A stretch of 63,988 nucleotides of DNA, the filler included, from Folioceros fuciformis (taxonomy: Eukaryota): the NCBI GenBank assembly GCA_049999805.1. It is 9 parts of 9 records of this genome, joined end to end, with 100 filler letters (N's around TTAATTAATTAA, not from the genome) between each part and the next. Parts side by side here need not be neighbours in the genome. Positions count along the whole stretch, not along the records: positions 41,238 to 48,712 come from JBNGIO010001776.1; 8 more parts are not named here. One strand, 5' to 3'. The notes below the pieces were generated by a model. The model did not search any database. It was not told the origin of the DNA and worked only from the letters and a program-made list of their open reading frames with translations. Shown piece by piece: positions 3,834 to 63,988 of this stretch. The first letter of the stretch is position 1; every line of letters begins with the position of its first letter. The translations under genes and the position numbers were made by a program.

Positions 3834-3933
3834 NNNNNNNNNNNNNNNNNNNNNNNNNNNNNNNNNNNNNNNNNNNNTTAATTAATTAANNNNNNNNNNN
3901 NNNNNNNNNNNNNNNNNNNNNNNNNNNNNNNNN
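3834..3933. other. Artificial assembly spacer; others at 7209-7308, 16596-16695, 32972-33071, 37174-37273, 41138-41237, 48713-48812, 62716-62815
   Basis: Identical 100-nt N-run with a central TTAATTAATTAA, which gives stops in all six frames. Confidence 0.98.
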
Positions 3934-7208: not shown

Positions 7209-7308
7209 NNNNNNNNNNNNNNNNNNNNNNNNNNNNNNNNNNNNNNNNNNNNTTAATTAATTAANNNNNNNNNNNNNNNNNNNNNNNNNNNNNNNNNNNN
7301 NNNNNNNN

Positions 7309-16000: not shown

Positions 16001-17399
16001 CTCACATTGGCTTGAGTCATTCTAATACTTTTAGATGTAGGTCTTCTCATTTCTAAAAGAAAATCAAAATTGTATTACTTGCTTCAACACCTCAAAATCA
16101 AAAGCCTAAAAGCGTTTGATATGGTCTATTTCTTAGACTGGTTTGTGCCCAAACTAGCAAGGGTACAACAAAGTAAAGTAAACCAGCTCAAAGACTTCAT
16201 ACGCCTCAAGCTATTCCACACTAAGTTATCTTCTCTGCTCTTCCTTTATAAACACTCTATCAAATCTTCCACGTTTAAAAAATGCCTACCAAACACTACT
16301 ACATCATCACAAAAAACTTCTAACGGGCTCCAACTGTGAGGTCTATTCCCTCCTAGTATGAGATGATGCAAGCTATGTTGTCGTTTCTCTTTTCCATAAT
16401 CCTTTCTCGTAAGCTCATGATCGTGACTTCTTTGTCGTCGATCTTCACACTTCTGCCCTGAAGAACATTCCCCTTTCTTATGAATATTGCTCTTCTCTTC
16501 TTCTACAATTTCCTGTACGATTTATCCTTCGCTCAAACAAAAATTTCCATTGGAACTGTGTTGGTATACACAACTTTGCCACACTATTTAAATACNNNNN
16601 NNNNNNNNNNNNNNNNNNNNNNNNNNNNNNNNNNNNNNNTTAATTAATTAANNNNNNNNNNNNNNNNNNNNNNNNNNNNNNNNNNNNNNNNNNNNGTTTG
16701 ATAAGTTATTCTATATTGTACAACATAATTTATACAAACATTATATTCATAAAATTTTCTTCGTAAATGTATCACCTGATCTAAGTTTAATTAGACTATA
16801 GCCCACTAGAGCAAAGTGGCAACCCGGGTAGCTTACGAAAAGGCTGGTAGGTAGGTGGAAATTGGGTCAGGGGCGGAGGAATTTCTTTTTGCTAAAATAA
16901 GAATAGATATTTCGGAGCTCCTGCCGACAGACGGGCGGATAGATAGACGGAACTTGTCCGGGGACGACAAACCCTACCTTGCCAGATCCGGAACAACGGG
17001 AGGTGCGGGGAGGAAGGCGCGTTTCGCAGTACCCTGAAAGGCGTGGGACGTGGAAGGCGAAAGGATGAAGGGACTATGCCGCCTCTTGCGTCGTAAGCAA
17101 GAGCGAGGTTAGCAAAGCTGGTAAGGCTAGGCTACAGTAAGGCTAGGCTGCAACAATCCGAGGATGAAAAGGCGCAAGATGAAGAGTCCGATGCGCGACA
17201 ATTCCGGTGGGCAATCACCTGGTGCGCATCCTGCTATCCCACTGTAATGCCCCACGCCTGATTCAGATAGCGCTTGTGGAAGATCATGTAACATGAGCAT
17301 CCCTGGGGAATGTAAGGAAGTTAGCAAGCAAAGCTGTTGCTTCATAGAGCATGAGTGGCACAGAGATGGAACCTGCGGTGGGCTGAACCGGTGGCATGA

Positions 17400-32180: not shown

Positions 32181-33071
32181 GCAACATTAACGATTCCGGT
32201 AGTAGGTAGACCTTCTCAACTCCCATATCATGATGCATTGAATACCGTTGGTAGCTTTGCATGTATGCCGTAGTGGTCGTGGGTTACTTCTCTTCAACCT
32301 TGTTGGTCTTTTGATTTTGCTTGTTGTCTGAGGTAGATGGGTTTTCAAACTGGTTCTTCCATTAAGTCTTTTCAATTAAGTCTCCACTTTAACATTCTTG
32401 GAGGATACTTTGCTTACCACATGACTTGCACCAATGGGCCAACTCATTAGTACATTGAACCTCAATTATATATTAACTACTCTAAGCAAGCATTGGCTTG
32501 CTGGGAATATGGAATGGATGGAAGGCATGTTAACAAGATAGATGAGTACAAGCATTGGTAACATGTTGTGAACACCAACACCTTAACCAACAACAGTTAT
32601 ACATTAGTAATCAGATTAGAAGTTGATGATTTATTCTATTGTAATTTGAGTAACACTATACAACATTCTCCAAAGTTCTTGCGGTTCAAGTTCTTTATTA
32701 CTGTAATAAGAATAAAAGTTCAATGTTTTGATCTTCTCCACATAAGTATGCATCTCCTTCATATACTTATGTTGTGAAATGGCAAAAACATTGAACTTCA
32801 TTCATCTTACATGCACATGCACAATTCATTAGTAGTAGGACAAGAATGGATCGCTCAAGGAGCTACTTCAAATAAAGCACAAGGATGGTTGGTGAAGTTT
32901 TCTATTTACTGTTACCGTGTGGATTGGTCAGTAGCTCCCTTGAAGTAAACTAGAATAATAGAATATTATCTNNNNNNNNNNNNNNNNNNNNNNNNNNNNN
33001 NNNNNNNNNNNNNNNTTAATTAATTAANNNNNNNNNNNNNNNNNNNNNNNNNNNNNNNNNNNNNNNNNNNN

Positions 33072-34452: not shown

Positions 34453-37273
34453 CTGGCATCTGCAACAAACTTCTGGACGGGGAGGTAAATTACGACGACC
34501 CAAGTGGCTATCACACTTGACTGGAGTATTTGAGGAAAAACTCTTATTGTAGCTACCGTACTCAGCAAGCATGAGGTTTTCAGAGGCCTCTAGCTAATCC
34601 ACCAACGTTCCTGTCTTTGCTCTTCGTTTTCAGATAGGCATACGACTCGCACATCGCATGTGCTTGTCAACGCATCGCAGTTGTGATGTGTTGGTCGGTT
34701 GCCCTATCACATCTCACAGTCAAGGAGTAGTGTATCAAAATTAGTTGAGCGATGAACTCTGAAAAGCCGAATCGGTGGTATCATAAAATATTTAACTTTT
34801 TCTTAACTGATGTAAATGATAGCATGGTGGGGCCAAAGGCCAAGGGTACTTAAACGGATCAAAGTTGTGTGGAGAAGGAGAGACGGTAATGCAAATGAAA
34901 AGGAAGTTAAGTCTATAGGAGAGAAATATCTTATTATATACGATTATCTAGAAAGGAAGTTTATCTTAATTCTATTGAAAAAGAAAGTATCCTTTTGACC
35001 TCATGTTTCCTTGGCATTGTTTCTCCTCATTTAATTTTCAAGTACATATCTTAAAAAAGATATTTTCTATTATTGAAAAAATGATGGAAAGTCCCACCTA
35101 CTTCAAAGATTGGAGGAATTGGAGAACAACCAGGGCCAAAGGTTAAGCGGGTACTAATCGCTTTGAACATCATTCTCAAACACTAAACGGGTACTAATCC
35201 CTTCGAACATCATTCTCAAAGATTACCTACCGCTCCCATATCTAGATGGGATATTGATCTATTGTTCCATGAAATCTATGTCTATCACTTCTAACACCAA
35301 GTGGAAATGGACAAGGCTTATCTATCAAACGAATTTACATACATTTGAGATCTAATCAAGGATTGAGCAAAACGAGATCTAATCAAGGATTGTGAAAAGC
35401 TTTGCTCATGACAATCATAGCAAGCAACAGGTTTCTTCCCCTTTCCTCGACAGTTGTCTTCTTTCCACAACAAAACAAATGATCATGATAAACCTAATCT
35501 TATCATAGCATTATTCCTCTTTGTTTATCACATGTTAAAGCAAGCAAGACTTGATGCTGATATCTGATATCCCACCTAGACGTTATGGTACCTGGAGAGA
35601 ATTGAATGGCAATCGGGTCATACACGTACTTGACAAAATGTTGCCAGTGGGCGGCAGACCCGTGCAACCTACAACAATTGGAAGCAAAGCATAAAGGCAC
35701 ATGCAATGTGGAAGGCACAACATTAACAGCGTATGGTGCGCCTAGCAGAAAGTTCAATTTACGTCTCAACCACTTTCTCTTCTATGTATGTCGACTCTAG
35801 TCTGCCGATTACGTAGTCCAACTATCCTATGATGCTATGACGCTTTGTACATGCACGATGCACGTCAACTGTAGTCTAGTGATCTCACAGCCCAGCTATC
35901 CTATGATACTTTGTACATGCACAGTGCACGAACCTGGGCTGAGCATTTTCTGGCTCCCATAAAGTTTCGATTTGCATCTCAACCACTTCCCTTCCGTATG
36001 CACGATGCTATGTTGTTCAATAGAGCTATCACGTGGTCCAGCTATCACATGGAAGTCTACCCAGTTGAATTCCCAGGACGATGTAGCAATGCCAGTGTCG
36101 TGCTCGGAACATGCCTGTTATTATGACACACTTGCCCTCTGTCTCCCCTCTGTTGTCAGAGTTTGTTGGTGTGTCCTCGTTGTCCCTCCTCTGTGCTAGG
36201 GTGAATCAGGAAAAGGTGATCCCATGAAAGCTCTCTTAACTGTCACACTTACTCTGTGCTGTGATGCGTTGTGTATGTGAGGACTCTGTTTAGGATTGAG
36301 TAAAGGGAGTCCGCACATAGGGCAACCCATGTGTGCGAGAGTGGATAATTTGGAGCGGACTCTGGGAACTGGACATGATCTTGGTCTAGATGATGCTTAG
36401 CAACCCTCCCTGGAAGCGTAAGAGCGTCTTATTGGACTGATCTGTGTACCTGTTCCCCCGTAAAGGCAGAGGGCAGGAGCAACACGGCAAGGAGGAAAAG
36501 GTGAAGAGAAGGTGATGGACGCATGCACCCTTAAGAGCAAGGGCGAGGACAGGGGAGTCCACTCTTGGGCGCGCCCACATGCCTCCACCTTCCTGCAGCC
36601 TTCCAGTTGGCCTGTGTCTTCTGCTTCCCGTTCCCCTCTGCCGTTCCCCGTCCCATGACACGGACGCGATGTCGACCGGGTGTCGTGTCGGGCCCGGCCC
36701 GGCCCGGTTATGATTATTTAAATGAGAAAATGGGATTTAAGGCGGCCGACACAGCGCTCGCCACCTATATGTACCACCGACCAGTCCGGTGCTGCGACAT
36801 TTTTCGAGAAAGCTTAGGAGGGACTGCGATTTCGCGGGATGCGGGGCTCCTAAAATAACTTGGGATAATGCGGCGAAAAAGCGGGCGGGCGCCGGCCAGC
36901 TTTGGGCTCCCCTTTACCTATTAATCCCGCTGATGGGGACGGCGCCGGAGAAGGGGGCCCGGAGCAGTGTCGCGTCAATAATAATGCTCCGCCGCCTGGT
37001 CCCATTGGCACCCGGTTCCGGGGGGTCCTTGCCTGCCCTCCATCCGACAACCCACGCAGTCCTGTCGTCTCCTTCTCCGCTTATTACCCCGCCTATCCGT
37101 CCATGCTCTCCCTACAGCCTCCCTCCCTCACTCCCTTCCTCTTCCTCTTCCTCCCTCCCTCACTCACTCACTCNNNNNNNNNNNNNNNNNNNNNNNNNNN
37201 NNNNNNNNNNNNNNNNNTTAATTAATTAANNNNNNNNNNNNNNNNNNNNNNNNNNNNNNNNNNNNNNNNNNNN

Positions 37274-37546: not shown

Positions 37547-39965
37547 ATGGTATAAGCGGATAATGAAGTATTTGCGCCAACTTGGCTTCCTGCAGGCTCC
37601 AATAGACACCAATGTCTTTTACTTTGCTATTGATTCGCTGTTTGTCATCCTTGCCCTGTATGTCGATGACTGTGTGCTTCTAAGCAATAGCCCTGATCAA
37701 CTTCAGAAGGTGAAGGCTATGCTTCGTCAGGAGTTTGAGATGACTGACCAGGGTGATTTACAGTTTTGCTTGGGTATCCAGATCTTGCGCAATCGCTCCC
37801 ATGGTCAAATCATTTTGCATCAAACAAAGTATATTAAGGAGATTCCGAAATAGTTTCATTTGGATGAGGCCCGACCAGTTGCCACTCCCTCTACAGTGGG
37901 GGAGAAACTTAACTCTTCTATGTCTCCTCAGAGTGATCGTGAACTTGAGGACATGCAACTTGTTCCCTATGCAGAGGCAGTTGGCTACATGATCTTTTTG
38001 GCAAACTGGACATGACCTGATATTAGTTACTCTGTCTCGATTGTCTCTCAGTTTTTGAAGTCTCATGGATGACAGCACTGGGCAGCAGTTAAGAGGATTT
38101 ACCGATATCTTAAAGGCACCATTTCTTATGGTTTGCAATATACCAGCAGTGGGAGTAATAGGTGTGAACTTACCTCCTTCGCTAATGTTGACTAGGCCTC
38201 TGATGCGAACACCTGGAAGAGTTTGTCTACATATTGTTTTCTCTTGGCTTCTGGTACTGTCAGTTGGAGCTACAAGAAGCAGACTTCCTTGGCACTTTTG
38301 TCCACTGAAGCTGAATATAAAGCTCTCACTGATGCTTGTAAAGAAGCTAAGTGGGGAAGACAGTTTCTAGAGTCAATGAATCAAGCTCAGACAAGTCCAA
38401 CACTGCTACTATGTGACAATATGAGCGCAATTGCCCTTGTCTCCAACCCTAGGTTTCATGCCAGAACCAAGCATATAGAACTCTATCATCACTATGTAAG
38501 GGATGCAGCTGAACGAGGCATAGTCAAGGTTGAGTATATTAGCACATATTTAAATATTGCAGACATATTTACTAAAGGGCTCTCCAAAGCCAAACACTTT
38601 CAGCAAATGGCTACTTTAGGTCGCAGGGAGTTCAGCCATCCCTAGCCTGGCACACTGTCTATCTATTGTGCAGGATTGGTATTGGCGTTTTCTAGGGTTC
38701 TGTGCACACCACACAAGGAGGTCAGCACCTTGGTGGCTCATGCCACAACTTCTGTCAGGCCTTAGAGTTCATGTGATGTAGCCCTAGGCACAGGACCACC
38801 GTGCACAGGTTACAGCCAGTTGTCAGTGACATGCCTGTTTAGAGGATGAAGCTCAACAGAAGTTCTAGACGTATGCATTGCATTGCTAGGTAGTTGTTTA
38901 CTTATAGGGCGGAGCTTCTTGCCACACAAGGAGCACAACTTGCTCCTGTGAGCACAGACACCATAGTCTTTTAGTAGCATCACGTTTTGCCTTGTTTACC
39001 TCGATGTCGTCAAGAACGTTGTCAACAGTTGTAGTAGCTCTTCTCAGAGACTCCTCCACTAGCTCTGCCTGCTGCCTGGCCACCTCGGCCCTTTGGTGTC
39101 TAGTAGTTTCTCCATCTCTGCAAGCGTCCCGAATACTGTCTTCACTTGATCAGCTAGCAAGGGAGTGGTGGGAGGTCCTCCAGGAGCACAGGCTCTGCGA
39201 CGAGGGATACTCGCCACCTCGTCCTCCTCATCAGCTGAGTTGGGCATAGGAGACAAGTTTGTGATGCTTGGCTTAGAAGCTCTAAAGGATTCTTCCAAAT
39301 CCAGCTCTATCATTGGAAAACTGGCAGGGTAGCGAGGCAGGTCGACAGGCGCTGAGACGTTGGTCATAGGCCTGCGCAGGCGCCACAGCTGGAGTCACTC
39401 CTCTGGCTGTTGAGCGCCTATGCTTCTGTCCATCTTCAGAGATGGAGCCGCTCGCTCTCTTCTTGCTTGTGCGCTTGGGAGCCATGGTTGCTGAGGTGCT
39501 GTGTGTCGAGCTTGAGCGAGTTCTTATCTGTCATCTTGCTGTTGTAGCTCGCGAATAAGAAGAGGACGCCGTTTTTAAGAATGCTGTAAACGAGGACTTG
39601 ATGGCTGCACGTGGCTTAGTGGTGGGCTGTTAGAAGTATCGTTGGATAATGATATCCCTTTTAAACCTATGGTCGTATAAGCTATTTAGGTTTAGTGGGA
39701 GTGTTAGGGATGGAAACCCTAACATGACTTACTCTACAGTTAAGACTTGGGCTTGGGCTATTCTAAGACTTGGGCAAGCTAATTGTGCCAGACGACAACT
39801 AGCTCATTATCACATAAACCTTAATGATCCAACGGTGGGGTAGGCGGGGTGAGTCCACGGGAGGAATTCGCAGGAGATACCTGCATCTGTGAGGTGAGGC
39901 CCGGTGAGGATTATGCTCCTCCATGTTAGGGATGGAAACCCTAACATGACTTATACTACAGTTAA
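37547..39965 (+). mobile_element. Ty1/Copia 3' half: RT, RNase H (to 38645), antisense ORF, PPT and 3' LTR start
   Basis: LALYVDDCVLL, FEMTDQGDLQFCLGIQI, PYAEAVG, SWSYKKQ...STEAEY, CDNMSAI, HARTKHIE and NIADIFTKGL motifs. PPT AGTGGGAG then TG at 39702. Several stops. Confidence 0.93.
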
Positions 39966-41137: not shown

Positions 41138-41237
41138 NNNNNNNNNNNNNNNNNNNNNNNNNNNNNNNNNNNNNNNNNNNNTTAATTAATTAANNNNNNN
41201 NNNNNNNNNNNNNNNNNNNNNNNNNNNNNNNNNNNNN

Positions 41238-41960
41238 GACTCGTGGTGAACATTTCGTATTATTGATGGAGAGACTAAACTTGTGCTACGAAGATGATGC
41301 GATCCCTAGCCCTGGATTCTTCGTTCCCTTCACCTTGGATGACACAGAAGGTAAAGATCTTCAAGGGAATGACAGTTGGTCTGGAAGGGTGGTACAGCGC
41401 TCAGGTAAGTACAAGTACTTAGGGAGGCGGCTACAATGCCGAGAGACTGGAAGGGTGGTACAGTGCAAGAGTACAACTACTTAGAGAGGTGCCTACAATG
41501 CCGAGATAAACGAACACGTTTGTCGTCCAGGCTTCCTTCCAAGATTCCAGGTACGTTACCTTGTGAGGTTTGTGAAACGTCGTTAGTGATATCTGCTCTC
41601 TTTGGCTTTCATGGCATGGTCAATGGTTGTGCGTTGCAGGTCAAGTTACGACAGATCTTGTTTAGGGTATGTAGTGTCATCAGTATAGCATTGCGCGCAA
41701 CTTGATCAAATTTAACTAGTATGTTATGGACGTATTTTTGGAGAGCAGTGGGATATTGGGGAGGAGACCGGGGACATTGGGGATCGTGTTGACATTTTGA
41801 TGAGGTCACTCAAGAACAAAGACAAAGCGATCGAATTTCTCCAGCAGAGTTTGGTCGCGGAACTGAGAGCATTTGGTGCTTCTCTTGATGGTAGTCCTGG
41901 AGTTGAACTAGTAGCAGGGATCATCAGGATTGAGTGTGTGGAGAACCTCAGGGAAGGAAC
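41238..41960 (+). pseudogene. TORNADO1-like (Roco family, COR region) gene remnant
   Basis: LLMERLNLCYEDD...FFVPFTLDD...YLGRRLQCRD...PGFLPRFQ, then GT-AG intron 41551-41639, then VKLRQ...DRVDILMRS...PGVELVAGIIRIECVENL. This is colinear with my recollection of TRN1 (LELCYE...LLVPSIL...YSGRHLQCDD...GFFPRLQVHL...YIDVLAC...GVILLEHIIRPQCVQDL). Frameshifts and an internal duplication are present. Confidence 0.7.
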
Positions 41961-42786
41961 CATCGTATCCAAAGTCAGTCACAGGGACCGCCTCTACTGA
42001 AGTCAGGGAAGAAACCGTCATATCCAAACGAAAGGTTAAAAGCAGGTCACAGGCGAGGTCTAGCAACGATAGTTAGTATAGAAAAAGGCGGAGATGGAGG
42101 ACAGCTAGACAGAGGGCGACTCGACGTTCTTCTCCGTGGTCTGCCCTTGAAGTTTGAGATGGTCTTTGTGGTGGACGATCTTATGGAAGCGAAATCAACG
42201 TTGGAGCACGTTGTCAGGCATCCTGACTTCGATGAGGACGATAGCTTTCTGCTTTACTTAAATGCCCATGATGAGACCGAAGAAGATGGTAGAAAGTATG
42301 TTTGCTTAGGTTTTGTCTGCGGAGAAGCTTTATGTTGAAGAAGTTATTTTGAAGCCCATTGCTGAATCCGGGAATTTGGCAAACAAGCCTAAGGTGGTTG
42401 TCATAAATATTTGTCGAGGTGCTGGCAGTCTTGCCAAAAGTGTGAAAGCACAACGTTTAGGCACCACCACCACTAGCGGCAAAGCCATGGGCTCATACAT
42501 TGAGGTGCTGGCAGTCTTGCCAAAAGTGTGAAAGCACAACGTTTAGGCACCACCACCCTTGCCACTAGCGGCAAAGCCATGGGCTCATACATTGAGGAAA
42601 GCTAGGGTCCCAGCAAGAGAATTCGACCCTGTATTATGCGAGCAACTTTCTCACCGTGTACTCTACTAGTCATGGAGCAACTTTCTCACCGTGTACTCTA
42701 CTAGTCCTGGAGACGGATCTTTAAGAGATGTTAAGAAAGGCCCAAACTTCATCATAGCTTTTGTTTTTGTATGTTTGCTTAGGTGA
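41961..42786 (+). pseudogene. Caspase-like (peptidase C14, p20+p10-type) domain remnant
   Basis: Motifs in caspase order: RRGLATIVS, DSFLLYLNAH (His codon 42267), LANKPKVVVINICRG (Cys codon 42412), NFLTVYSTSPGDGSLRDVKKGPNFIIAF. Frameshift near 42320 and two tandem duplications. Confidence 0.72.
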
Positions 42787-43631
42787 AGCAGACAACGCCG
42801 AGAAGCTACGGCAGGGTGTGGGAAGCCGCTACGGGTGGGGCTGTGGCTGAGGCCACCACGTGATATCATTGTCACTTAGTTAACAAAAAGAGATATGAGT
42901 GATGGTCATGAAGATCACCCCTCATGAATTTTCGGGTTTAGGGTTCAATAAAATGAACTCCTATAGACATATTGTAAAGTGGATTATTCTATTACATGAG
43001 TTTATCTTGGAACTACTAATAAAGCAAGCAAGCAACTTGAGAAGGTGCTCTGCTAATTATTAATGGACAATAGGTGGCTTAGAGTCTAGCATTATGTCAA
43101 GAGAATTAATTCAAAGTATGCGAGTTATATGCATATAACTTGAGATTGGCAAGGTCTTCAAAGTATGCGAGTTATATGCATATAACTTATGAATTGGCAA
43201 GGTCTGAGGCTGTTGGGAAGCCAACATTTATTTCTTGACTCCTTGTTAGCTTTGTGAAATGGATGTGTTACTACATACATATTCTTAAATTTACAAATCG
43301 AGACTTATTATGTTTTAGAAGGCTATAAATGTATGCTTAGACCATTAGTTTTAATGTATTGAGTGCAAGACTTCCTTATTCTTTAACATATGCAAGCATT
43401 CATTGAGACTATATACATTGTCCATGGATCATAGCTAATGTGATTTCTGTGCCTTAAGCTTGCCATCTCCTTTCGTCATAGGCTTTCCCAAGCCCTTAGC
43501 TCCAATTGAATTTGGTGTGCCTTGCAAAACTTAGACTTGTATGCCTATTGTCAAGTTTAATATTTAGTTGTGGCAAGAAAATTTTATTATTTAGCTATCA
43601 CAACCAAGTCAAGTATCTAGGTCTCATAGTC

Positions 43632-44340
43632 ATGGCTTTGGATAGGAAGGTGAAGTTGAGGGTTGGCGATGATCATATTTTTGAGATTAATGAAGCTGTG
43701 GCACAAGAGAGTGAGATTTTGAAGAATCTAATCCAAGATGTGGGCCTAGAAAGCATTGTTCCACTTCCTAACATCCGCAAGAAAATGTTGGAGAAGGTGC
43801 TCGATTGTTGCAAGTTTCATGCAGAGGTAGTGTAAAAGTCTGAGGACAATTTGATGATTGTCCAACATGATATCAAACGATGGGATCAGGAATTCGTGAG
43901 GGTTGATTGTGCTACGTTGTTTTAGCTCATTTATGTGAGTGACCATCTAGCCTTTCTGCTTCATGAAAGCTTACGCAAAATAGTTGTCATGAAGCCATCG
44001 TGAACAATAGCAATTAGTGCTTTCGCCTTGTTAGATTTGTCATTTTGATGGTTGTGTACTATGTGGTGCAATTGATTGTTGCTCACATATTTTGGTTGGA
44101 TTGTTTTGTTGCAACATTTAGTTGATTTGTTTTGCTTCATAAAGTTTAAGGGCTTACCATGGCCTCCTTGTTTTAAGAAAACCAACAAAAGCATAAATTT
44201 GTTTAGCATAAATAACCTATGTTTGCGTTGTGGAGGAGGTGGCTGATTATATCAACATCAGCAAGCTATTCGACTTAATTTGTTACTCTATTGCAGATAT
44301 GATAGAACATATGAGTCGTCAGCAAATAAGAGAGAGTCAA
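43632..44340 (+). pseudogene. SKP1: SKP1/ASK-like pseudogene
   Basis: KVKLRVGDDHIFEINEAVAQES...VPLPNI...LEKVLDCCKFH...IKRWDQEFVRVD, an intron at about 43935-44238, then ADYINISKLFDLIC..IADMIE. In-frame TAA at 43833 and TAG at about 43923; the C-terminus is truncated. Confidence 0.85.
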
Positions 44341-45754
44341 TCAGTGGTTTGTAACACTTTTTGTCTCCATGTTACAGTATTCTGAGCTACCATTAAGTTT
44401 AAGTATTACATAACCAGTACATGAAGCTCATAACCAAAGAGTTTGTTATGGGCCTACCCTTTGAGATGAGGTTCAACCTTCAGTTTAGCCAAGCATGCCA
44501 CCAACTAATCACAATCGCATGCTTGCACTAACGTCAATTACAAAGAAAAATGTGGGCTTAACCCAAAGTTTACATCTAGCATGGGCAACATACACTGGCA
44601 TTGACATGGGTGAAGCCTGTATAGGCAACCTTGTTCTATACATGCAACTTGTAGTGTGCCCACAACCCAACACACCTAGGTATAGTATGCCAGTAGACTA
44701 AAAGAAATAGAAGTTCTATTTCTTTCAATCTACTTACTACTGTAACTCTAAAGTCGAGTTCCTCTCGTAACTCAAGTGTACACTACCCCAACCATCTTGC
44801 TACCACCAATTGTGCATGTGGCTTCCACTATTTGGGCCATACATGGAATGTTGATGGTCCCACACTCACCTTCAGCTTGCAACGATGGCCGTAATTGGCT
44901 TCGAGGCATAGGGGGGCTCCCTACCTCCTACTCCATTTCCTCATCCCCTCCACCCATCTCCTTGGCATACCCCCTTCTACCCATCTCCTTGGCATACCCC
45001 CTTCTATTCATGGGCATAATAGGAGGAAGTGGGGATTTTCATTGTTCTCGAAAACTTTATGACTCGTTGCCGGCCTTGCAAACATTATGCCCTCATGCCT
45101 CTCATTAGGCATTGGGCCTTTGTCTCCTATGTTCTGCTCAATGTCCTCCTCCCTATCAAACTCTTTAGCAGAGCAATCGGTTACTTAGCGGGATTGAAAG
45201 GCCAACTAGTACTCCTCATCTTTGTTTTCGTTGGTCGCCTTCATGACGTCAAGTGAAAAAGGTAGAAACAAAGTCCCCTCGTCTCTTTATGCCCCAATAC
45301 TCCTACATTTCGGAGAGGGGTCTCAGACACCCAAACTCACACTCTTCATCTATAGGTTCAAGTCCATTTTTCTTCGAACTTTGTGACCCATCCTGCGCTA
45401 GCATATTGGCCCCCTGTGTTGGGCCCTTCTCATATAGTTTTAAGAAATTGCACTTGCATTGTAAATTGGGCTTTTGATGGCAAAACATTTCCATGTTGGC
45501 ATAGATCCACTCGCAACCACCTAACCAACTCGTTGCAAACTTTGTCGTTTGCCAACATTGGCTTGTACAAGACTGCTATGTCCTTTTGTTGCATTCTCTA
45601 TTCTCATGCACAAGCCTTAGCTACATCAATGTAGCGGTTATTTCACAACCTTGCAGACTAGTTGAATTTGCTGCTAATGAAAGCTTTTACAGTAAAATAT
45701 GAGAACTACATTGGCACATCGGTGCAAATTTGTTTCCTTCATTCTAGATGGAAA

Positions 45755-46150
45755 TTCGCTCAAGCTCACAAGCAGGCTCACTCACTTACATGTTCACTTG
45801 CACTTGCATAGGCCCAAAGGTAAGCTCACTCACTCATAGGCTTGCTCACTCACTCATAGGGCCACTCACTCACATGCTCACAAGCAGGATTACTCCATAA
45901 CTAGCTCACTCGCTCATAGGCTCACAAAAAGGCTCATTCACTCATAGGCTCAAAGCCAAGCTCACTCACTCACAAGCTCATAGACTGGCTCACTTGCTCA
46001 CAAGCCCAATCCCTTACAAGGTCACAACCAAGCTCACTTGCTCACAAACAAGCTCACAAACTCATTCGCTCATAGGTGGGTCACTCGCTCATAATCTTGT
46101 AGATAGGTGGGTCACTCGCTCATAATCTTGTAGATAGGTTGAGTCACTTG
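45755..46150. repeat. Array of degenerate GCTCACTCACTCATAGG-like motifs
   Basis: Many GCTCAC/GCTCAT cores, ending in an exact tandem duplication of ATAGGTGGGTCACTCGCTCATAATCTTGTAG. Confidence 0.75.
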
Positions 46151-47625
46151 GATGCCTAAAGAGTGTTTGACACACTTGGACAGTATGATCTAGTTTGTTG
46201 AACAACTCTCACAGTATGGTTTTCCCAAGATGGATAAAAATTCCGTTCGTTTAGATCCCTACATTATTGTTCAAGTAAATGACATGGCGGTTTTTGATTT
46301 TATGGCATTTGTCTACATCCTACAAGTGTGTGCAAGTGTGGGCTAAGTGTTGGAGAAGGGGAAGCAATATTAAACCACATGGATATAATACATGAAGAAG
46401 GGGAAGCAATGGTGGTCTTTTGCATGTAATATACCTTTCAATGAGTAAGAAAATTGTACATGAATTATAGGAAATGGACATTCATGAAATTGAGTCAAAA
46501 GTTAGTTTGCACAATCAATAACAAAGACATAGTGAGTGGAAAACTGTAGGGATAGGGACGGCAAGTTAGTAAGGGTTGATACGTGTTATAAGTAGAAGTA
46601 GAGGGAACGAAGTCAGTTCTTTCCATGTTTCTCCATTGTGAAGAAGATGCAGTGAGCTGTCCTTGAGCGCCTTTACAACAACTTTCATATGCTAGATGTC
46701 ATAATTTGACTTCTTTTTTAATTTTTTCTCTCTAAAATCACTTTTAGAAACAGGGTCTATAATTTGAGTGTTCCAGAAAATAGAAGTATGCATCATTTGC
46801 AACTCTATTGGCAAAAACAAGTAAGGGCGGCCCATACCCAGAGCGAGCGCTTTGGGAACACCTTCATGCTCTTGTTTTCATTTCCATGAATGTTGAGAAT
46901 TTGAATACTATTCTAGTAGATATCACTTTGTGAAAAAAAATGTTTACTCTCACACTTACCTTTCTGCAATACAATGCTCCGCTCAAGCTTTCTTCCTTGT
47001 CTCATGATAGCCTACTTGCTTACAATCTCGTTGAATAAATTTAAGCTTTTATTTGTCTTCGTTTGGAGCAAGGAGGGCCTAATGACTCCTTCATTATGTG
47101 GAGCACGCCAAAACCACTTACCCTGTGGCAAGGCTAGGGACACCACACTGGTCTTGTGTTGTGATCATCAAAATCCCATCTAATCCAACTTGCTTTCAAG
47201 ACCGGGACGCGATGACGAAAGATGGAGAGCGCTCCATATGACGACAAAAGTAGCACAGGGGCCGAGAGAACGGTGTGCTTGTAGGCGACGCCGGCGACGG
47301 CGTCGCTTCTCGGTATCCTCTCGATGTCCACCCTTGCCCGATGTTTCGACACGCGATGCGCCATCGGGTCGTCCCACCCACGCACATCTATAAAATATAT
47401 GTATAAGGGAATACCTTCTCCAGCCCAGCAGTTCTCTGAACTATCCCGTCTGGGCACCATATAGATCACGCACTCGAACCTCACATGCTTACCTCGTCCC
47501 TCGAAGGCATGTCTGACAAAAACCTCAGCATACAGTGTCCGTGAAGGTTGCACTGGAGCTCGTGCTGAAAGTGTACAGAAGCTGCTAACGTGAAAGATGA
47601 GGACGCGTGCTCTTGGGAGGGAGCC

Positions 47626-48712
47626 ATGGCCGTCCTTAGGTTAATTGGAACGGGAGGGAGATCTCCTGCTGGTCTCATTCCTCGGCGTGCCTGTAAGTCG
47701 TATTGGAATTTGTCGGACGATCGTGGACCTAGCAGGCTTGCAGGATGCGAGAGGGCCGCTGCCACGCCGGAAACGGTCAGGAAGCTATGTCATCAGGGCC
47801 GTCTTAGCGAGGCTGTCGAGGAGCTGGAAGCCCTGGTGCACACGGACTGTTGCGTTTCCAAGTCTGTTTTTTACACTGTGCTGAGGAAATGTGTATTGAA
47901 GGGGGATCTTGCTCTGGGTCGTCGGGTTCATGCTTCCACGGTGAAAAAGGGGTACCAGTCGGACACCTTCCTGTGCAACCATATCCTGCGGATGTACGCT
48001 TCTCATGGCATGTTGCAGGATGCGATGGATGTGTTCTCCATGGCTGCCAAGCCAGATGCCTTCCTGTGGTCCTCCATCATTTCTGCTTATTCTAAACATG
48101 GGCAAAATAAGCAGGCCATTGAGCTGTATCGTCAGATGCGAAGGTCAAGGGCGAAGCCGGATGGTCATGTGTTCGTGGCAGCCCTGCAGGCTTGTGCAAG
48201 AGGATCAGACTTGAAATCTGGGCAGCTGGTGCATGCTGATGTGCTGGCCAGTGGACTTAAGCCGAATTTGGTGCTTTCTAGCTGCTTGGTGGACATGTAT
48301 GCCAAGTGTGGAAGCCTGGAGGATGCTCAGCATGTCTTTGATGGGCTTGTTCAGAAGAATGTGGTGACTTGGAATGCTATAATATCAGGGTATTCTCAGA
48401 AAGGTCGAGGGCAGGATGCTCTCCGTCTCTATAGTGCCATGCAAGAAGATGGTGTGGCTGTACCCGATTCAGTGACATTTCTGTGCCTCCTGCAGGCATG
48501 TGCAAGTGTAGGGACCTCTGCATTGGAGATGGGGAGGCATTTTCACGTGCAAACGACAGAACGAGGATATCATGCTGATACGTCCGTGGCCAACAGTTTG
48601 GTGAGCATGTATGCAAAATGTGGTAGCCTAGAGGGTGCTCAGAGAGTGTTTGATGGACTTCGTCGGAAAGATGTGGTTACCTGGACAGCTCTGATTGCAG
48701 GATATGCCCAGC
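47626..48712 (+). CDS. PLS-class pentatricopeptide repeat protein, 5' part (runs into gap)
   Basis: Repeated LVDMYAKCGSLEDAQHVFD..KNVVTWNAIISGYSQ and PDSVTFLCLLQAC motifs, with a transit-peptide-like N-terminus. Intronless. Confidence 0.95.
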
Positions 48713-49749
48713 NNNNNNNNNNNNNNNNNNNNNNNNNNNNNNNNNNNNNNNNNNNNTTAATTAATTAANNNNNNNNNNNNNNNNNNNNNNNNNNNNNNNN
48801 NNNNNNNNNNNNCTACTATGCTATCTCATCTACTATTGTATCATACAACACTACCTACCCTTTGTGCGGTGGTGATTCTTGCTACTCTATCATTAGGACT
48901 ATGATGTTGTCTCTCATATCTTTGTGGCTTGGTAACATACTGCAGACATTGGTGAAGGGTTGCCAAAGAAGGTTTCAAGTTACTCCTCATTCCATGTGTC
49001 ATCGTATGAGTGCCGCGACACTACTTTTGTCAAATTTTCTAGGGGTGCATGATCAGCTTTCTTTCCCCTTCCCTTCGTCCTTGCATTTGACTGAGTTCTT
49101 GGAGGTCCATCGGTGCACTCTTTCCTTCCACCATTTGCATTACGTGCACTCTCTGTTTCACTAACGTTCCACGGGAAAGTTGTCGTCAACTTCATGGCCC
49201 GTCATGGCCCGTTATTCTCTGCTCGATGAAGATGGTATGCCTCTTGTCCCAATCAATCGCAATACAATTTCGACCCTCCATTATTGCCGAAAGAACACCA
49301 AGAACCACCCTAAACCCTAAACCATCAACCCTAGCGGCTTTTGGTACGGATTTACAACTCTGCCCTTATTCGACACGTTCAGCACTTTTTTTTATGATAG
49401 TACTATGCTTAATGATCCAATGCATTTCTCCAATCTCCTTTGCTGCACTATTGCTTAGTGCATTGCTCTTCCGAATATTTTATTTCAATGGATGAACCCC
49501 AAATTCAACTATAACATAACGTACTTGCAATTTTCGTATAGCCCCACATCCGGGACAACGTTGTCTTTTTCCCAAACCATAGGTTGTACGCCTGCCTTTG
49601 CACACTACTTCCACAACCTGTCTCTAATATCCTGCATCTGATCTAGACTGTGCCTGCACACGACCCTCAAATTTTGACACGCGGTGACTTTGAAAAACCC
49701 CTCCATTACCTTCTCTAGGTCACCTAATGTAAACTACTACCTAGGGTTG

Positions 49750-62440: not shown

Positions 62441-63988
62441 TGTGAACGAAAAAAACTTTCGGAACCCCCATTTTGAGCGACGGAATGAGCAGGTTGTGAT
62501 TTTTTTTGTGAAGGGACAGGCGAATCGGCTTAGTAGGTAAATAAGACCAGGGTGTTTATGCCCAAAGTCCCTCTTGGGCTTTGGGGGTTGGGGTGTACTG
62601 AAGACCAGGACAAGGAGAAGGAATGAGCGAGTGCCTCCTTGCCTCTCGGGTCATTGAGAACATTAAGGACCAGGTCTGTAGGTAGGTGAGTGGGGTATGA
62701 CCGTGGCCTTTGGTGNNNNNNNNNNNNNNNNNNNNNNNNNNNNNNNNNNNNNNNNNNNNTTAATTAATTAANNNNNNNNNNNNNNNNNNNNNNNNNNNNN
62801 NNNNNNNNNNNNNNNCCTAAAGAGGCGTGGCGGAACGGGAGCGGCGGAAGCACTGCTCAAGGTAGGCACGAGAAAGGAAGCGAACGGGTGGCTGGTGCGC
62901 GACATGGCAAGTTCCCAGCTGTTGGGATTGGCCAGGTGGGTCCTGAGCTTCTTCCGGGTACGCAAACAGGATTATCTGTCCGATCAGATGCTCCTGTTTG
63001 TGCATGAAGTAGTGAAGGGCACCAAGATCGACTGGGGAAGGATTTTATACACCCGGATGGATGAAGAGAGGCAGAACCTGATCCGACCCACCCCTGAACC
63101 TTCTATGATTTCCCCATTTCTAATCCACGTGTACAGTTACGCTAACGTGGTCACTGAGCTAGAAAGGCTGGCCTCGCTGCACCTGTGGAAGCCAGTTCGG
63201 GATGTGAAGTGGAAGCCCGCTGAGCCAGTAAGGGCTGCCTCTAGCAGTTGGGAAGCTGACAGTGGGGATAGCTCGCAGGAGGAAACCCCAGCCAAGCCCA
63301 GGAAGAGGATGGTCCCACAGAAGAAGGCTCCCACTAGGAGGAAAAGGATCAGAGGACCAGGAGTGAGCATGGGGGCTGATCAGGAGGAAGGGGGGACGGC
63401 CCTGGAGCAGACAGGCCAGCAGGAGGAAGAACAAGAACCAGCTGTCCAGGGAATCGAGGACCGAAGGTTGGAGGAACAAGGTCAGGGTGAGACAAGACCC
63501 GAGGAGCCACGGGATCAGGTGATGACAGCCGACACAGTTTCCTCCAGACAGGAGGATAAGTTAGGGCGCGTTACAGCATAGGAGGGTTTTTCAGGGTGGG
63601 AGGACATTTTCAGGTGCAGGCCTCAGAGAGACAGGTTGCAGGTGGGGGACCTGGACAAGTTGCGAGAACTCCTGGGCAGACAAATCACGGCGAGAGGAAT
63701 GGGCACTGGAGGGGTGCAGGAGGTGGACTTACCCGGATTGACTGCTGCAATGGTACAAGCCCAAGCAGACCTCCTGGATCAGGCCGCTAGGGCCCTGACC
63801 TGGTTAAGTGTACAAGCCAAGCGAGAAACCAAGGCTCAGGTGAAGGAAGAGGAGGCTCATGAGCGAGAGGTTGAAGTAAGAAGGCATCTGGCGGAGTCAG
63901 AGACAGCGCGGCAACTGCTGGAGGGGAAGTAGCGGGTTTTGGACAGGGAGAAGGCTCAAGCCAAGGAAGAGGCGCGCGAGGCGAGGGC
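62441..63988. mobile_element. Retroelement family A copy 4 (spans gap; closest to copy 1)
   Basis: TGTGAACGAAAAAAACTTTCGGAACCCCCATTTTGAG terminus. 62816-63800 is highly similar to about 2850-3833. Confidence 0.85.

Follow-up and report, generated by a model that had tools for sequence, protein, structure and literature searches.

The window considered here is the whole analysed stretch of 63,988 nucleotides (nt) of DNA from Folioceros fuciformis (assembly GCA_049999805.1). The element of interest is a chimera of two gene pieces at the start of the part taken from JBNGIO010001776.1. The upstream piece (41239–41949) resembles the COR domain of TORNADO1 (TRN1)-type Roco proteins, and the downstream piece (from 41950) has, in its second half (42310–42783), a likeness to caspases (Pfam family Peptidase_C14). 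A preliminary description of this DNA had taken the copy to be broken, and it is: at least ten disabling lesions are present, the sequence is cut at 42762, and the copy cannot make a protein. More than one genomic copy contains the join of COR and caspase-type pieces.

Related copies were sought among Logan contigs from three public runs. X1 and X2 come from one DNA sample, which may be the sample behind the assembly; X3 comes from another study and is called RNA by guess only. The parts of the chimera are as follows.

41239–41445, + strand: COR, end of COR-A into COR-B, reading ...LNLCYEDD...FFVPFTLDD...YLGRRLQCRE; frame 1; collinear with P0007 residues 37–105 and with P0003 from residue 1080
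41512–41550, + strand: COR-B, ...CRPGFLPRFQ; frame 1; matches GFFPRLQ of P0007
41551–41639, + strand: intron, GT..AG; homology favours the 41551 donor
41640–41663, + strand: COR-B exon piece VKLRQILF; frame 0
41666–41749, + strand: COR-B; frame 2; stops at 41672–41674 and 41717–41719; 1 nt missing after 41749
41752–41949, + strand: COR-B, DIGEETGDIGDRVDILMRS...GSPGVELVAGIIRIECVENL; frame 1; homology to all relatives stops at 41949
41950–41951, + strand: breakpoint; contigs of X1, X2 and X3 depart here, reading ...ENL/TLCIHRHSQS (slash at the breakpoint)
42048–42311, + strand: presumed caspase p20 N-half, GLATIVSIE ... DSFLLYLNAHD; frame 0; His codon 42267–42269; by eye
42319–42421, + strand: caspase Cys-box region, ...NLANKPKVVVINICRG; frame 1; Cys codon 42412–42414
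42598–42761, + strand: inter-subunit linker and p10 start; 42676–42761 reads SNFLTVYSTSPGDGSLRDVKKGPNFIIAF; matches caspase-3

The two halves and their junction

Five motifs quoted in the preliminary description lie on the + strand where it placed them: LNLCYEDD (41275–41298), YLGRRLQC (41416–41439), GFLPRFQ (41530–41550), VDILMRS (41788–41808) and GIIRIECVENL (41917–41949). Its assignment of this half to the TRN1/Roco COR type also holds. The open piece 41716–41997 (94 amino acids, aa) was compared by phmmer with 1,835,955,588 representative proteins at E ≤ 1e-3 and gave 28 matches, the best at E 3.5e-15. Thirteen of these are one- or two-stretch alignments to bryophyte proteins; the 12 that were looked up are Riccia, Marchantia and hornwort Nothoceros proteins, plus two unnamed Logan records. 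The other 15, repeat proteins in which a short part of the query was matched repeatedly, were set aside as spurious; among five of them looked up, two are named, both TPR proteins.

In a Pfam scan of the 13 bryophyte relatives, Roc was found in seven, COR-A in five and a weak COR-B in two. One (P0010) has NB-ARC, LRR and alpha/beta hydrolase domains, and four had no match at the threshold used. The COR part of the chimera aligns directly after COR-A of the relatives. By tblastn, residues 37–226 of P0007, a transcript of Nothoceros aenigmaticus, match 41254–41985 at E 4.6e-21. Read in the homology frames, with X where a frame breaks, the COR half (188 aa) shares 40% identity with P0007 over 192 aa, with an E of 2e-34 as computed in a 12-protein database. 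Profile searches had been proposed for both halves, and that for C14 succeeded; the Pfam COR-B model (PF25497) found no match on the frame-1 read-through P0038 at E ≤ 10, so that the COR assignment rests on homology to Roc-COR proteins. P0007 itself reaches 21.4 bits against a COR-B cutoff of 27. The COR likeness, as judged from these alignments, is far beyond chance, and the nearest relatives are hornwort and liverwort proteins.

Collinearity with the bryophyte Roco proteins (P0007, and P0003, P0029, P0023, P0016, P0008 and P0001 from Marchantia polymorpha/paleacea and Riccia) extends from the end of COR-A through COR-B. Shared motifs are LCYE, GRRLQC, FPRxQVxLR, VDILxRS and PGVxLV..I.R.ECV. 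The last ~370 residues of the bryophyte proteins, to WxCxxC, are replaced in the chimera from 41950 on. To our knowledge, TORNADO1 is the sole Roco type known in plants. The name TRN1 is presumably appropriate; it was taken from the architecture, in a comparison with bryophyte sequences. The intron, which had been placed near 41551–41639, was seen in a single spliced contig (X3 record 20) that skips 41566–41637 with GT..AG ends, the cut possibly lying 2–4 nt further on.

The two halves had been described as joined with no intergenic space. They do adjoin on one strand, and do so in several copies, but they are ~100 nt apart and in different frames, COR in frame 1 and caspase in frame 0. Across 41828–42555 the aligned contigs have no listed indel, and the frame relation is the same throughout. 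Frame 1 meets stops from 41998 on, and frame 0 has no ATG from 41934 to the first strand of the caspase domain. The occurrence of both halves in one open reading frame elsewhere, which the preliminary description had looked to, was not found: Roc or COR together with C14 in a single open frame is absent from the window, from the aligned contigs and from the 13 relatives scanned.

A chimeric read join, named in the preliminary description as something that would overturn its reading, is not what lies at 41950. Record 5 of X1 (200 nt, 16 other letters, 0 gaps) spans 41916–42115, with 34 nt to the left and 165 nt to the right of 41950, and it carries 42019 C>G, which creates a frame-0 stop at 42018–42020 in the linker. 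A bridging contig in X3 is implied by the contig table. Other contigs leave at 41950 and continue in the COR frame as TLCIHRHSQS, which matches the canonical continuation in the relatives (LTLCTHRQNQ in P0007, LTLCVYRERQ in P0013); the organism thus also has canonical TRN1-type sequence. Bridging contigs and canonical contigs that depart at the same point together indicate an evolutionary breakpoint, not an assembly error.

Nor does the join fall at a clean domain boundary. The relatives run on for ~370 aa past ECVxxL, ending in WxCxxC in 9 of the 14 bryophyte relatives checked, and this C-terminal region is absent from the chimera, where homology stops at 41949. Because the canonical sequence goes on past 41950 in the relatives and in some of the organism's own contigs, the join cuts a conserved region and does not follow a domain border.

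The caspase likeness rests chiefly on P0032, a read of 42310–42783 in frame 1, a single frame with stops given as X. P0032 passes the cutoff of Pfam Peptidase_C14 (PF00656) with 22.8 bits against 21.4 (E 8.2e-5), over profile positions 114–188 only. The Cys box and the p10 strand share one frame in it, with duplicated junk between them. A longer caspase read drops to 20.6 bits, and the raw pieces, six in all, reached no more than a C14 match below threshold (E 0.17). The remaining five of the six frames of 42310–42783 match nothing in Pfam at E ≤ 10. Legumain/VPE, separase and ULP1-type proteases were set aside because C14 alone matched.

A PDB sequence search with P0032 gives a similar picture. 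Caspases make up 47 of the 51 listed rows at E ≤ 10; 46 of these are caspase-3, procaspase-3 or apopain, the other being 3sir. Their E-values are 0.6–1.3, none significant singly, and all match the same two collinear pieces in the right order. NLANKPKVVVINICRGA is aligned to SLTGKPKLFIIQACRGT of caspase-3 chain 4qu0_A, and SNFLTVYSTSPGDGSLRDVKKGPNFIIA to a 28-residue caspase-3 stretch. NICRG (Cys codon 42412–42414) aligns with QACRG of caspase-3, with the Cys box as a whole, KPKVVVINICRG, set against KPKLFIIQACRG. In the p10 strand FLTVYSTSPG..SLR....G.NFI is aligned to ..SWR....GSWFI of caspase-3. The chimera differs from animal caspases (family C14A) in that it is found in a plant, in a broken frame, with a truncated p10 and with an N-half that has no significant match.

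The caspase-like domain of the preliminary description therefore stands for its second half, which by profile score is C14-like, and the first half is presumed by eye to be the caspase p20 N-half. The presumed His lies in LNAHD (42258–42272), ~46 residues before the Cys, in surroundings (41934–42335) that match neither Pfam nor PDB. This spacing and the strand-helix pattern presumably fit a caspase p20. The usual His box of caspases is SHG, and the presumed box here is AHD.

No relatives of the caspase half came to light in the collections searched. Used singly in phmmer against PDB, the N-half and the Cys piece returned no caspase, and NCBIfam and PADLOC, including bacterial caspase models, gave no match. 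No relative was found in a large protein collection (a 134-aa piece against longer and similar-length proteins, and a 158-aa read-through against longer ones at E ≤ 10), nor among the viral and metagenome contigs searched. Peptidase_C14 was found in none of the 13 bryophyte COR relatives.

Lesions and related copies

The lesions comprise two stops, three small deletions, one replacement of 12 nt by 7 nt and four short tandem duplications, in addition to the cut at 42762. The rearrangements are listed below.

41381–41506, + strand: tandem duplication, 62–66 nt, 84–95% alike; breaks frame
41948–42057, + strand: tandem duplication, 55 nt, 88% alike; between the halves; common to a paralogue (X1 record 5)
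42312–42318, + strand: 7 nt against 12 nt in paralogues; looks like a micro-inversion; frame 0 to frame 1; loose ends 42311 and 42319
42416–42597, + strand: tandem duplication, 86 and 92 nt, identical save a 6-nt indel; breaks frame
42640–42709, + strand: tandem duplication, 35 nt; within the inter-subunit linker and p10 start
42762–42808, + strand: 3′ truncation; T-rich filler, a 37-nt second copy of 42297–42330, then low-depth DNA

In the COR half, one X3 contig skips 66 nt in the region of the first duplication (41354 to 41421). The 10 nt missing after 41663 are present in X3 (24.3 of 24.3 depth), where they occur only in the one spliced contig, and are absent from X1 (0 of 222.6) and X2 (0 of 135.7). 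In the caspase half the frame changes at 42312–42318, at 42502 and at ~42626–42675; with its stops, one of which (42603–42605) lies in the frame that the first 86-nt repeat copy leads into, this half is not an open reading frame. Contigs of 116 nt in X1 and X2 cover 42476–42597 with a 6-nt gap and otherwise no differing letter. Summed depth falls after 42824.

At most of the lesion sites, the majority of paralogue contigs have the state that would leave each half open. They have C at 41672 (T>C in all covering contigs), C at 41719 (G>C in most), an extra G after 41749 (438.1 of 512.8 depth in X1), the 12-nt version at 42312–42318, and a C after 42626 (58.8 of 88.7 depth in X1) where this copy lacks 1 nt. 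They also read past 42761, as ...AFMKAIIDQYP, and are still caspase-like there.

On 2,063 nt, 129 contigs of X1, 147 of X2 and 74 of X3 were aligned, 90–99% alike; those of X1 divide into 36, 33 and 60 at ≥99%, 95–99% and 90–95% likeness. Up to seven contigs carry one variant (42012, X2). So many contigs at this range of likeness, with up to seven per variant, point to many diverged copies. Among the differences listed, 7 of 17 in 41950–42311 and 4 of 10 in 41750–41949 are at third positions.

The region 41381–42808 shows dense local rearrangements within 1.4 kb: four tandem duplications of 35–92 nt, the 7-for-12 replacement and the 37-nt copy ~470 nt downstream. Their density resembles the scars left by template switching or end-joining repair.

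Origin of the chimera

The balance of evidence tips toward a defunct copy, truncated at both ends, from a multi-copy and lineage-specific family of chimeric pseudogenes in a non-seed plant. A TRN1-type Roco gene would have broken inside the conserved region that follows Roc, at the point where the ECVENL strand of COR-B ends. Illegitimate recombination or template switching would have attached the broken end to a protease domain of the caspase type (Peptidase_C14, with a QACRG-like ‘NICRG’ box), and the chimera would then have been copied many times. The join would be older than the spread of the family. Taken together, the members of the amplified family most likely have no function as a fusion, because the frames disagree in every aligned contig, the linker of the bridging paralogue contains a stop, and the 10-nt loss is shared by the DNA copies. 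We infer the order of events, with amplification after inactivation, and a separate caspase-type parent gene, existing or past.

Several observations weigh against this reading. The N-half of the protease (41934–42335), with no match in Pfam or PDB, is without statistical support. Most lesions are absent from most paralogue contigs, so that the family consensus may be open within each half; the same pattern is expected of a live family that includes one dead member. The alignment took in contigs at least 90% like this pseudogene, a range in which distant intact members are not visible. Twenty-five hypothetical GT-AG pairs (41–122 nt) could bridge both frames without a stop; no such splice is found in the aligned contigs. 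The X3 contig with the GT..AG skip and the X3 contig bridging the junction suggest that chimeric copies may be transcribed. The evidence leans to amplification of an already disabled chimera, and the lean is not strong because intact-looking halves fit both models, only copies at ≥90% are seen, the 25 introns exist on paper, and transcripts are possible.

The preliminary description had proposed an ancestral in-frame LRR-Roc-COR receptor with a C-terminal protease. A live family of this kind, present or recently lost, in which COR dimerization brings caspase-type proteases together, much as initiator caspases are activated by induced proximity, and this locus is one dead member, is somewhat unlikely. 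The head-to-tail arrangement on one strand in several diverged copies agrees with it, as do the paralogue contigs that undo most of the lesions (those at 41672, 41719, 41749, 42312–42318 and 42626, and the lost p10), the presumed His-box and the Cys-box residues (AHD, NICRG), and P0010 of Riccia fluitans, in which the same COR-B-type module is joined to an enzyme domain. On our reading, removal of one copy of the 55-nt repeat plus one base would bring the halves into frame. The proposal finds no support, however, in the frames, which differ in all aligned contigs, or in the bridging paralogue with its linker stop; the break lies inside a conserved region, C14 occurs in none of the 13 relatives and no protein was found for the caspase half. 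Neither LRR nor Roc is visible, as the contig begins inside COR, and no description was found in the literature. An intact, expressed LRR-Roc-COR protein with a C14A-like caspase end elsewhere in the genome, or more modestly a working stand-alone caspase-type donor gene, is unlikely.

The different frames, with frame 1 meeting stops from 41998, would also fit two units that were never fused: a caspase gene or fragment with a dead TRN1 piece upstream, carried for example as cargo of a mobile element or in a segmental duplicate, junction transcripts being read-through. The Skp1_POZ piece with a stop on the same contig is another gene fragment, and the copies are many and young (90–99% alike). 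But frame 0 offers no ATG between 41934 and the first domain strand, neither side shows an element end, the 5′ side being missing and the 3′ side truncated, and the intron is kept, so the sequence is not a retrocopy; this explanation is improbable. Still less probable, to the point of being hardly credible, is an artefact in which the assembler made the join or the short duplications, or in which the caspase likeness is due to chance. The window is indeed a chain of short unplaced contigs, the 86- and 92-nt repeat copies are identical save the 6-nt indel, as collapsed alleles may be, and the protease N-half has no match. Yet independently built contigs run across 41950 in a diverged copy and cover the repeat junction at 42502 without a differing letter, the Pfam score exceeds its cutoff in one of six frames only, and the p10 continuation of the paralogues is still caspase-like.

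Known systems offer partial parallels to the chimeric pseudogene family. In the apoptosome, the inflammasome and prokaryotic conflict systems with caspase effectors, a regulated NTPase scaffold is paired with a caspase fold, and the chimera, if ever intact, would make a similar pair. Roc-COR has no part in those systems, which rely on STAND or AAA+ NTPases or adaptor domains; the chimera shows no NTPase and no in-frame link. Fusions of prokaryotic caspase-superfamily peptidase domains to STAND NTPases and many other domains are described in PMC7159879.

A parallel in a plant is Riccia fluitans KAL2609872.1 (P0010, 1704 aa), a predicted gene model with NB-ARC, LRR, a COR-B-like region and a C-terminal alpha/beta hydrolase. 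Its COR-B-type module is 47% identical to 41761–41949, and a hydrolase rather than a protease lies at its C-terminus. It keeps ~110 canonical residues after ECVxxL before the swap, whereas the chimera keeps none from 41950. If the gene model is right, P0010 would be a hybrid of Roco and NLR (nucleotide-binding, leucine-rich repeat) architectures. Its joining of a COR-B-type module to a hydrolase indicates that the module does recombine with enzyme domains in bryophytes. A 2014 review has Tornado as LRR plus ROC-COR and places ROCO genes in flowering plants only (PMC4104024), a statement contradicted by the bryophyte Roco proteins found here. Hydrolase and kinase domains on NLRs of non-flowering plants are reported in PMC11218826, where the words peptidase and protease are absent from the accessible text; the available part of an article on brown-algal ROCOs has no mention of caspase (PMC11378527).

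The COR-B piece was matched twice in each of three further proteins, P0001, P0002 and P0005 (Riccia sorocarpa and Marchantia polymorpha; 1288–3382 aa). The COR-B unit thus looks duplicated, and a second Roc was seen in P0001 only. Roc-COR genes seem to have diversified in liverworts.

The Roco-caspase architecture, which the preliminary description did not know from plants, was not found in a literature search either, and supplements may list such architectures. A search for a paper on the Marchantia gene identifiers likewise found none. In the prevailing view, metacaspases take the place of true caspases in plants. As an extrapolation the fused receptor is attractive; if true, it would be a protease switch for immunity or cell death, gated by a GTPase and activated by dimerization, unlike plant NLRs and metacaspases. 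The most surprising element is the caspase-type domain itself: one plant lineage carries many copies of it, with a QACRG-like box, physically attached to a piece of Roco COR. According to the abstract of PMC10896300, only animals have caspases, and plants have metacaspases. Were any copy intact, it would be a new death or immune switch in plants and would allow a direct test, outside animals, of whether induced proximity activates proteases. Without an intact copy, the family would still exemplify clearly how gene fragments become chimeric and are amplified, and it would point to a caspase-type parent gene. Bryophyte-type plants, for their part, appear to have diversified Roc-COR genes.

Window make-up and flanks

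The window is made of nine unplaced contigs chained by eight identical linkers, and sequences on either side of a linker are uninformative about each other. The features concerned are the following.

3834–3933, 7209–7308, 16596–16695, 32972–33071, 37174–37273, 41138–41237, 48713–48812 and 62716–62815: contig linkers, N44-TTAATTAATTAA-N44
43623–43832: Skp1_POZ fragment; Pfam E 4.4e-17; stop at 43833; on the same contig as the chimera
47569–48712: PPR gene; PPR_2 E 7.8e-40; 381 open codons; runs into the contig end

The chimera lies at the 5′ end of contig 41238–48712, directly after the artificial linker 41138–41237, and the sequence upstream of 41138 is unrelated to it. The 5′ part of the gene had been described as lost in a gap; this gap is the assembly linker N44-TTAATTAATTAA-N44, and the 5′ part is therefore unseen, not demonstrated to be lost. 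No further copy of the chimera was found inside the window, and no transposon ends were recognized at the 3′ edge of the chimera, which is a truncation.

The PPR gene on the same contig supports a land-plant origin of that contig. The Skp1_POZ piece belongs to a pseudogene or to a gene split by an intron; by eye, Skp1-like sequence seems to continue downstream of 43833, to 43950. On the neighbouring contig, open reading frames at 37758–38645 look retrotransposon-like by eye, and 38196–38642 has no Pfam match at E ≤ 0.001. Just 3′ of the chimera, an AT-rich spacer (43100–43205) contains a direct repeat of ~50 nt, seen by eye, in which CAAAGTATGCGAGTTATATGCATATAACTT...GGCAAGGTCT occurs twice.

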